Origin: a virus
Virus genome (UHGV): UHGV-1704341
Length of the DNA stretch: 12,853 nucleotides
Reading direction: 5' to 3' (one strand)
Positions 10,697 through 11,166 of this stretch are shown here, one piece after another (position 1 is the stretch's first letter; each line of letters begins with the position of its first letter). Under the pieces are notes generated by a model. The model had not been told where the DNA came from, ran no database searches, and saw nothing but the letters and a program-made list of their open reading frames with translations. The translations under genes and the position numbers were made by a program.

Positions 10697-11166
10697 ATGG
10701 CTGGGACGGCGGGACGGCGCGCAAGGCGCTGGCCGGAAACCCCGGCAAGCGAGCCCTGAACAAAGATGAACCCGTTTTTACGCCCATCAAAGGTGTTGAG
10801 CCACCGGAGTGGTTCGCTGAAGAAGAGCTCCCTCTCGCCACGATCATGTGGCAACTGACAACCAAAGAACTCTGCGGTCAGGGCCTGCTGTGCGTGACTG
10901 ACCTCGCAGTGCTTGAGCGGTGGTGCGTAGCCTATGAGTTCTGGCGACGTGCCGTGAAAAATATTGCCAGACAGGGCAACACCATCACCGGTGCAATGGG
11001 CGGCATGGTCAAAAATCCGGAGCTGACCGCCAAAAAAGAACAGGAGTCCGAGATGAGCAGTACGGGGGCAATGCTCGGACTCGACCCCAGCAGCCGCCAG
11101 CGTCTGATTGGCCTGGCGGGGCAGAAGAAAGCCACTAACCCGTTTCTGAAAATTATCGAATCATGA
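10697..11166 (+). pseudogene. Terminase small subunit (P27-family-like), disrupted by an 8-bp tandem duplication near the start
   Basis: RBS aggag then ATG 10697 (frame 2) reads MAGTAGRRARRWPETPASEP then stop. The conserved body (...ARKALAGNPGKRALNKDEPVFTP...MWQLTTKEL...) is in frame 1 and ends at 11166. Removing one copy of gggacggc (10703-10710 / 10711-10718) restores a continuous ORF starting MAGTARKALAGNPGKRALNKDEP. Confidence 0.8.
10703..10718. repeat. Perfect 8-bp tandem duplication (gggacggc x2) in the terS 5' end
   Basis: Read directly from the sequence: ctgggacggcgggacggcgcg. Confidence 0.9.

Follow-up and report, generated by a model that had tools for sequence, protein, structure and literature searches.

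By its sequence, the terminase small subunit gene (terS) described here would be a disrupted copy of an SfIV/SfV-type P27-family terS and not a functional member of this family. The gene lies in a stretch of 12,853 nucleotides, which was analysed as a whole and is called the window in the following. We regard it as almost certain that the window, a contig of 12.85 kb, derives from an SfV/SfIV-like Escherichia coli prophage and, jointly with this identification, that its terS has lost 25 bp after position 10713, the encoded protein being otherwise 100% identical to the TerS of SfIV. The initial annotation had attributed the broken frame to an 8-bp tandem duplication. The intact relatives are 25 bases longer at this site and not 8 bases shorter, and the 8-nt tandem repeat would be a by-product of the junction, formed from two pre-existing copies of ACGGCG, and not the trace of a duplication event. 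As to the origin of the loss, we lean slightly towards an artefact of sequence construction, in which the terS lesion would be one of nine join errors derived from patchy short-read data.

The terS gene and its intact relatives

The native start of terS is the ATG at 10697-10699, which is preceded at a distance of 8 nt by a Shine-Dalgarno sequence, AGGAG (10684-10688, plus strand), identical in all intact relatives. The frame opened by this start is closed after 20 codons by the TGA at 10757-10759 (10697-10759, plus strand; translation MAGTAGRRARRWPETPASEP followed by the stop), and only its first five to six residues (MAGTAG) are shared with intact TerS. The region around the site reads aaccAGGAGtgccgcatATGGCTGGGACGGCGGGACGGCGCGCAAGG and contains GGGACGGC twice in perfect tandem at 10703-10718, with the match running one base further, to 10719. 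The remainder of the gene, corresponding to codons 15-164 of intact terS (10714-11166, plus strand), lies in the -1/+2 frame relative to the start and does not differ from the DNA of E. coli ECONIH1. This body frame is open from 10675 and offers no ATG, GTG or TTG until the ATG at 10846 (Met59). The ORF starting there (10846-11166, 106 amino acids) includes nearly the whole Terminase_4/sm_term_P27 domain and scored 75.5 bits against TIGR01558 (cut-off 45.6) and 76.8 bits against PF05119, Terminase_4 (cut-off 24.7). The 20 nt upstream of ATG 10846 showed no Shine-Dalgarno sequence, and a scan of positions 10400-11300 revealed neither promoters nor terminators. The stop of terS and the start of the terminase large subunit gene (terL) overlap as ATGA at 11163-11166, the downstream ORF being the annotated terminase large subunit of ECONIH1. 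Thus the initial annotation had read the repeat, the short frame behind a start with a ribosome binding site, the displaced body with its first start at 10846 and the membership in the P27 family correctly, the latter being borne out by both profile matches and by the position just upstream of the overlapping terL.

First-order Markov simulations of the window gave the chance expectation for perfect tandem repeats with a unit of at least 8 nt. The window contains four of them (8, 9, 13 and 16 nt) against 0.19 expected, and none is present in the nearest intact relative; the repeat and the frame break are thus real features that chance does not explain.

A query of 611 bp around the site matched 1,136 records from E. 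coli and 24 from phages, among them the Shigella phages SfI, SfII, SfIV and SfV. The query coverage was at least 80% in 1,116 of the E. coli records, 99% identity was reached by none, and the best E. coli matches (95.9% identity) spanned 636 bp compared with 611 in the query. With a 91-bp query across the junction, 1,118 of 1,120 records fell into the identity band expected for about 25 extra bases and not one matched the junction. All intact relatives examined, including E. coli ECONIH1 and FDAARGOS_497 and the phages SfI and SfII, are 25 bases longer at the site. Their sequence is ATGGCTGGAACGGCGGG[GCGTTCCGGGCGTCGCCCCAAGCCA]ACGGCGCGC, where the inner segment is the one missing from the window, and is read in the codons ATG GCT GGA ACG GCG GGG CGT TCC GGG CGT CGC CCC AAG CCA ACG GCG CGC AAG. 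It includes a native direct repeat of ACGGCG with two copies in frame, 27 nt apart. Intact homologues that carry both copies in frame, which the initial annotation itself had named as evidence against a duplication, were thus found.

Pairwise and multiple alignments place the junction between 10713 and 10714, with the 25 bp missing and a microhomology of 0 bp; the loss takes out the last base of codon 6 and all of codons 7-14 of intact terS, which corresponds to nt 18-42 of its coding sequence. According to these alignments the first copy of the window repeat is native GGAACGGC with an A-to-G change, while the second consists of native GGG and native ACGGC from 25 nt downstream. The change concerns position 10705, where the window has G for the A of its relatives (GGA to GGG in codon 3, synonymous), and is the sole internal substitution relative to ECONIH1. 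Native GGAACGGCGGG with this A-to-G change, joined directly to native ACGGCGCGC, would yield the 8-nt tandem repeat. The loss would remove residues 7-14 (RSGRRPKP) and shift the frame, translation would stop after 20 codons and the domain-bearing remainder would be left without a usable start.

Intact TerS comprises 164 amino acids with the N-terminus MAGTAGRSGRRPKPTARKALAGNPGKR. It is carried by more than 1,100 E. coli prophages and by the phages SfI, SfII, SfIV and SfV, is 100% identical to the TerS of the functional Shigella phage SfIV and was found on at least 1000 public contigs. The TerS proteins of SfIV, SfV, SfII and SfI, which are serotype-converting phages of Shigella flexneri, and E. 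coli WP_000929184.1 (“phage terminase small subunit P27 family”) represent the same gene in the same place as the terS of the window, and the window and the Sf phages have the gene order HNH, cos region, terS and terL, overlapping by ATGA, in common. Compared with the Sf phages, however, nt 18-42 are missing from the window copy and its codon 3 is GGG instead of GGA, so that the 164-aa protein cannot be made. The affected segment is strongly retained: AGRSGRRPKPTARK is kept by every named TerS variant read and MAGTAGRSGRRPKPTARK by every one with a complete N-terminus, and GRSGRRPKPTA is even preserved in the TerS homologues of Burkholderia, Pseudomonas, Vibrio and Psychrobacter phages with 42-51% overall identity. 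The N-terminal motif of the family, GR(S)GR(R/K)PKPTA(R/K)K, is not present in one continuous frame in the window copy. No homologue of TerS was found in the PDB at the sequence level at E values up to 1.

These comparisons leave little room for the model of the initial annotation, in which slippage duplicated GGGACGGC in a terS allele whose N-terminus was short (MAGTARKALAG...), reversion being possible through removal of one copy; we consider it scarcely credible. The repeat is indeed perfect, the reading frame is restored when one copy is deleted, and three true tandem duplications exist elsewhere in the window. Yet the N-terminus repaired in this way is not native, as it lacks the 11 residues GRSGRRPKPTA, and it is not the clean P27 type it had been taken for, since this motif is conserved in the distant homologues and the resulting 153-aa protein is absent from approximately 15 billion public proteins. 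Neither about 1,100 E. coli matches nor the phages examined contain a single-copy allele, the 25 extra bases are present and in frame in all relatives, and the model would need two events, a deletion of 33 bp and then a duplication of 8 bp, although a single loss of 25 bp is enough. With a short and perfect tandem repeat at its frame break, the gene resembles cases of slipped-strand duplication and of phase variation at contingency loci. In contrast to such loci, the single-unit state is not the wild type, and loss of a unit would here cause an 11-residue deletion and not a reversion. Nor is the lesion “reversible-looking”, because 25 bases are missing and a true reversion is impossible. A functional change of frame, by programmed -1 ribosomal frameshifting or by a phase-variable switch that controls TerS, has a close to negligible probability. 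Relative to the start, the body does lie in the -1 frame, and the repeat could in principle slip, but no slippery heptamer of the type X XXY YYZ was read in 10697-10759, all homologues have one continuous frame, and the loss of one unit does not give back the native protein.

The exact sequence of the junction (an example of a junction k-mer is GGGACGGCGGGACGGCGCG) is absent from IMG/VR, the JGI metagenomes and the GTDB representative genomes. The G allele at 10705 was not present in the approximately 1,100 complete-genome matches sampled, and an intact allele with this change was not found in IMG/VR. A search of the JGI metagenomes and GTDB representative genomes with a 20-mer carrying the change returned chance matches only; those in a JGI contig and in a UBA “Peptococcaceae” MAG were rejected as the allele, being unrelated sequence. 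Elsewhere the A-to-G change was detected solely in one metagenome scaffold (L023, also listed as L009), which has a 10-bp deletion of its own at the same spot; the junction of this deletion is likewise absent from IMG/VR.

The prophage contig and its further indels

The prophage combines an early region of the lambdoid type with a lysis cassette and an HK97-type packaging module of HNH, TerS and TerL. For the alignment of the whole window the best-matching complete genome, E. coli ECONIH1, served as reference (NZ_CP009859.1:4837317-4850301). Over 12.8 kb the window differs from it by one internal substitution, at 10705, and nine indels. In 23 of the 25 best complete-genome matches the region measures exactly 12,985 bp, so none of the indels of the window is present in them. 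Two complete genomes of natural relatives, compared with ECONIH1 over 13.4 kb, showed 12 and 1 substitutions and no indels. The lesions of the window were not found on the same background in 5,426 complete E. coli genomes. The 12 substitutions belong to FDAARGOS_497 (L032) and all lie within 236 bp of the HTH/replication gene (locus positions 3089-3324); the two prophages are otherwise identical, and the cluster resembles a small recombination patch. A similar cluster of substitutions is found at the same place of this gene in another locus (L029).

In the HK97-type cos module the HNH gene is followed by cos, TerS and TerL and then by the portal, the S78 protease and the HK97-fold capsid protein, and the window shares this order. 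The HNH protein of HK97, gp74, is reportedly needed for cos cleavage. The linear genome records of SfII, SfIV, SfV and SfI start in or just around the spacer between HNH and terS, which is therefore presumed to be the cos region. This spacer holds an inverted repeat, GGGGCGGG/CCCGCCCC (10598-10646; perfect over 8 nt, arms 33 nt apart), which is intact in the window. HNH genes that adjoin cos and terminase genes have been described (PMC3592412). Unlike the HK97-type module, however, the packaging genes of the window are all interrupted, HNH by a deletion of 56 bp, terS by one of 25 bp and terL by an insertion of 16 bp.

The terS lesion, which had been called discrete, is accordingly accompanied by eight further indels. 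The HNH endonuclease gene (10276-10570, plus strand) is frameshifted by its 56-bp deletion after 10387 (microhomology 1 nt), and terL is reduced to a 5' fragment (11163-11987, plus strand) of 274 instead of 577 amino acids by a 16-bp perfect tandem duplication of GGCCGTGCTACGACAA at 11908-11939. In the early region, a 13-bp duplication at 1143-1168 shifts the native frame of the LexA-family repressor gene on the minus strand, ymfT is frameshifted by a 61-bp deletion after 1373 (microhomology 0 nt) and ymfL by an additional C at 1672, and a 9-bp duplication at 2872-2889 leaves the HTH/replication gene in frame. Towards the lysis genes, 33 bp are deleted after 8176 in an intergenic T-tract that follows a hairpin upstream of the holin gene, and a 16-bp deletion after 9110 shifts the frame of an Rz-like lysis gene; both deletions have a microhomology of 0 nt. 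The lost T-tract adjoins the GC-rich hairpin GGCCGCCtacGGGCGGCC (8159-8176). If real, the 33-bp deletion would put out of action an element that resembles an intrinsic terminator and precedes the holin gene. In the repressor gene the native frame is broken after codon 8 (MKTVHDIRP and stop; 1143-1178, minus strand); the duplication also creates a new in-frame ATG 13 nt downstream, giving a predicted ORF of 224 amino acids with unchanged length and the N-terminus MTS instead of MKT.

All four insertions are perfect tandem duplications (1, 9, 13 and 16 nt). Seven of the nine indels shift the reading frame, with no sign of selection for frame. The summed microhomology of the deletions is no greater than that of random endpoints (simulated mean sum 3.4; P(sum ≤ 1) = 0.19). 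Inactivating lesions, as they would be expected in a cryptic prophage, are found in several genes: the repressor is frameshifted in its native frame, and so are ymfT, ymfL, the Rz-like gene, HNH, terS and terL. Three ORFs specific for the lesions, the 274-aa TerL fragment, the 224-aa repressor with its new N-terminus and a 316-aa HTH protein that has an insert of 3 aa, are not on record, and the junctions of the terL duplication and the HNH deletion are absent from IMG/VR. The last 18 bases of the window (12836-12853) consist mostly of G (…GGCGGGGGGGGGGGGCAAGGTAC) in place of genuine terL sequence (…GGCGGTTGGCAGAGCCATGTTGTAC…). This end is similar to the tail of a poor read, for which two-colour chemistry is a possible source, and it suggests that the window is a complete short-read contig.

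Independent scaffolds and the origin of the lesions

The same prophage is represented by an independent metagenome scaffold, L023 (ENA ERZ28627344, scaffold_125, sample SAMN00715147). It contains three N-gaps and, inside its contigs, deletions of 11, 10 and 9 bp in HNH, terS and the portal gene; these features lie at locus positions of approximately 364, 1868, 9411, 9849, 12298 and 12655. The first N-gap begins after the same base (GGTTATAAA|) as the 61-bp deletion of the window, the second is situated 42 bp from the 9-bp duplication, the 11-bp deletion 61 bp from the HNH deletion, and the 10-bp deletion overlaps the terS deletion. In L029, a further independent ENA metagenome scaffold of the prophage, an N-gap was found 73 bp from the terS lesion of the window. 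A permutation test of the co-location with the lesions of the window gave p = 3.5e-5 for five features and 0.0017 for the three N-gaps alone. The coincidences with L023 could be due to sites that are fragile for technical reasons or to a defective lineage that really exists.

Disrupted copies of the terS N-terminus are not rare in general, since gene calls for the 106-aa ORF exist in 117 blocks of a public collection. Besides L023, a 14-bp duplication (L022) and a 37-bp deletion (L024) were detected in this part of the gene. Five further loci have single-base deletions in short G or A runs within codons 5-25, in the GC-rich N-terminal part of the coding region (the NCBI and ENA assemblies L025 to L028, and L005); these deletions look like homopolymer errors of long-read assemblies; the last of them is the complete genome of E. 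coli ET201, where terS and terL are both annotated as “frameshifted”. Gene calls alone indicate a truncated prophage remnant in one case (L006/L021) and an apparent gene insertion within terS in another (L007/L030). In all disrupted public loci that retain the region, both copies of ACGGCG are present about 27 nt apart. A hairpin as a cause of a hotspot in the terS N-terminus was considered and dropped; the intact 63 nt show no unusual DNA fold (z = -0.57).

Two readings of the lesion carry most of the weight. Errors in joining contigs or closing gaps are favoured, because breakpoints are shared with other assemblies, the contig ends in junk, the lesions are absent elsewhere and the lone substitution lies beside a lesion; the errors would have arisen at sites of this element that short reads fail to cover. 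Such errors are matched by differences that are almost exclusively of the indel type, by deletions free of homology, by sites near N-gaps and by the G-run of the last 18 bases. The window shows indels with one substitution, while its natural relatives show substitutions only, and perfect duplications together with deletions of near-zero microhomology fit contig joins through wrong overlaps or gaps and not replication slippage. The lesions lie at technical breakpoints, coinciding with the N-gaps of L023 and L029, and are missing from finished genomes; the junction and the three lesion-specific ORFs occurred in no collection searched; and the substitution is placed 8 nt from the terS lesion and recurs only in the lesion-bearing L023. 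On the other side, the window differs from typical scaffold errors by having no Ns, and we can name no assembler step that produces clean duplications of 9-16 nt and deletions of 16-61 nt without them. To our knowledge, de Bruijn contigs cannot invent junction k-mers, which counts against an artefact. A sloppy assembly should moreover show substitution errors, of which there are almost none. The deletions of L023 are located within contigs and may be read-supported, real lesions of a related strain with the rare G allele, and real indel polymorphism in the sampled population could itself break contigs at these sites. A real 25-bp deletion in a decaying cryptic prophage, with indels in each of the genes terS, terL, HNH, Rz-like, ymfT and ymfL, is a possibility we put forward only tentatively. 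Defective prophages are common in E. coli, the predominance of frameshifts speaks for absent selection on the frame, and L023 has, in a sample of its own, N-free deletions in terS, HNH and the portal gene together with the A-to-G change, which suggests a defective lineage; lesions of the terS N-terminus also recur in public sequences (+14, -37 and several 1-bp changes). Against decay stands the ratio of nine indels to one substitution, compared with no indels and 13 substitutions in the two natural comparisons taken together. In mutation-accumulation spectra of E. coli, substitutions far outnumber indels of such size. The deletions without microhomology, the breakpoints coinciding with N-gaps of other assemblies, the junk at the contig end and the failure to find the lesions on the same background in any of the 5,426 complete genomes argue in the same direction.

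Indels planted in a natural prophage sequence, deliberately or at random in silico, would account for the indel type of the divergence, for the perfect duplications and the deletions without microhomology, and for the absence of the window from every collection searched. This origin is nevertheless very improbable, as random sites would not match the gaps and deletions of independent scaffolds with the p value of 3.5e-5 given above, planted indels would not share the rare A-to-G change with L023, and the G-rich end has the appearance of a read tail from real sequencing data. We also regard it as very improbable that real indels formed at particular fragile sites of the prophage in gut E. coli, which would imply recurrent double-strand breakage and homology-independent joining. 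If this were true, independent samples would carry different indels at the same breakpoints (codon 6 of terS, the A-run of ymfT and HNH), and prophage genes would be inactivated much faster than by point mutation. Whether the preferred join errors or decay gave rise to it, the lesion is nothing new, since it comes down to an assembly artefact in the one case and to an ordinary pseudogene of a defective prophage in the other.

Consequences of the lesion

For the evaluation of similar contigs, the comparison holds two lessons. A frame break that coincides with a short, perfect tandem repeat does not prove a duplication, and a comparison with homologues is needed. Furthermore, divergence by indels only, breakpoints at scaffold gaps and a junk end, when found together, flag a contig whose pseudogenes are doubtful.

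If the lesion is real, the window would carry an irreversible null allele of terS, next to terL, HNH, Rz-like, ymfT and ymfL genes that are broken as well. Slippage of the repeat would at best lead to an in-frame protein without the conserved 11-residue motif. Since the ATG of terL overlaps the stop of terS, terL would in addition lose its translational coupling. With a frameshifted terS the prophage would be unable to package its DNA, which is routine for defective prophages and is probably not a property of the organism.
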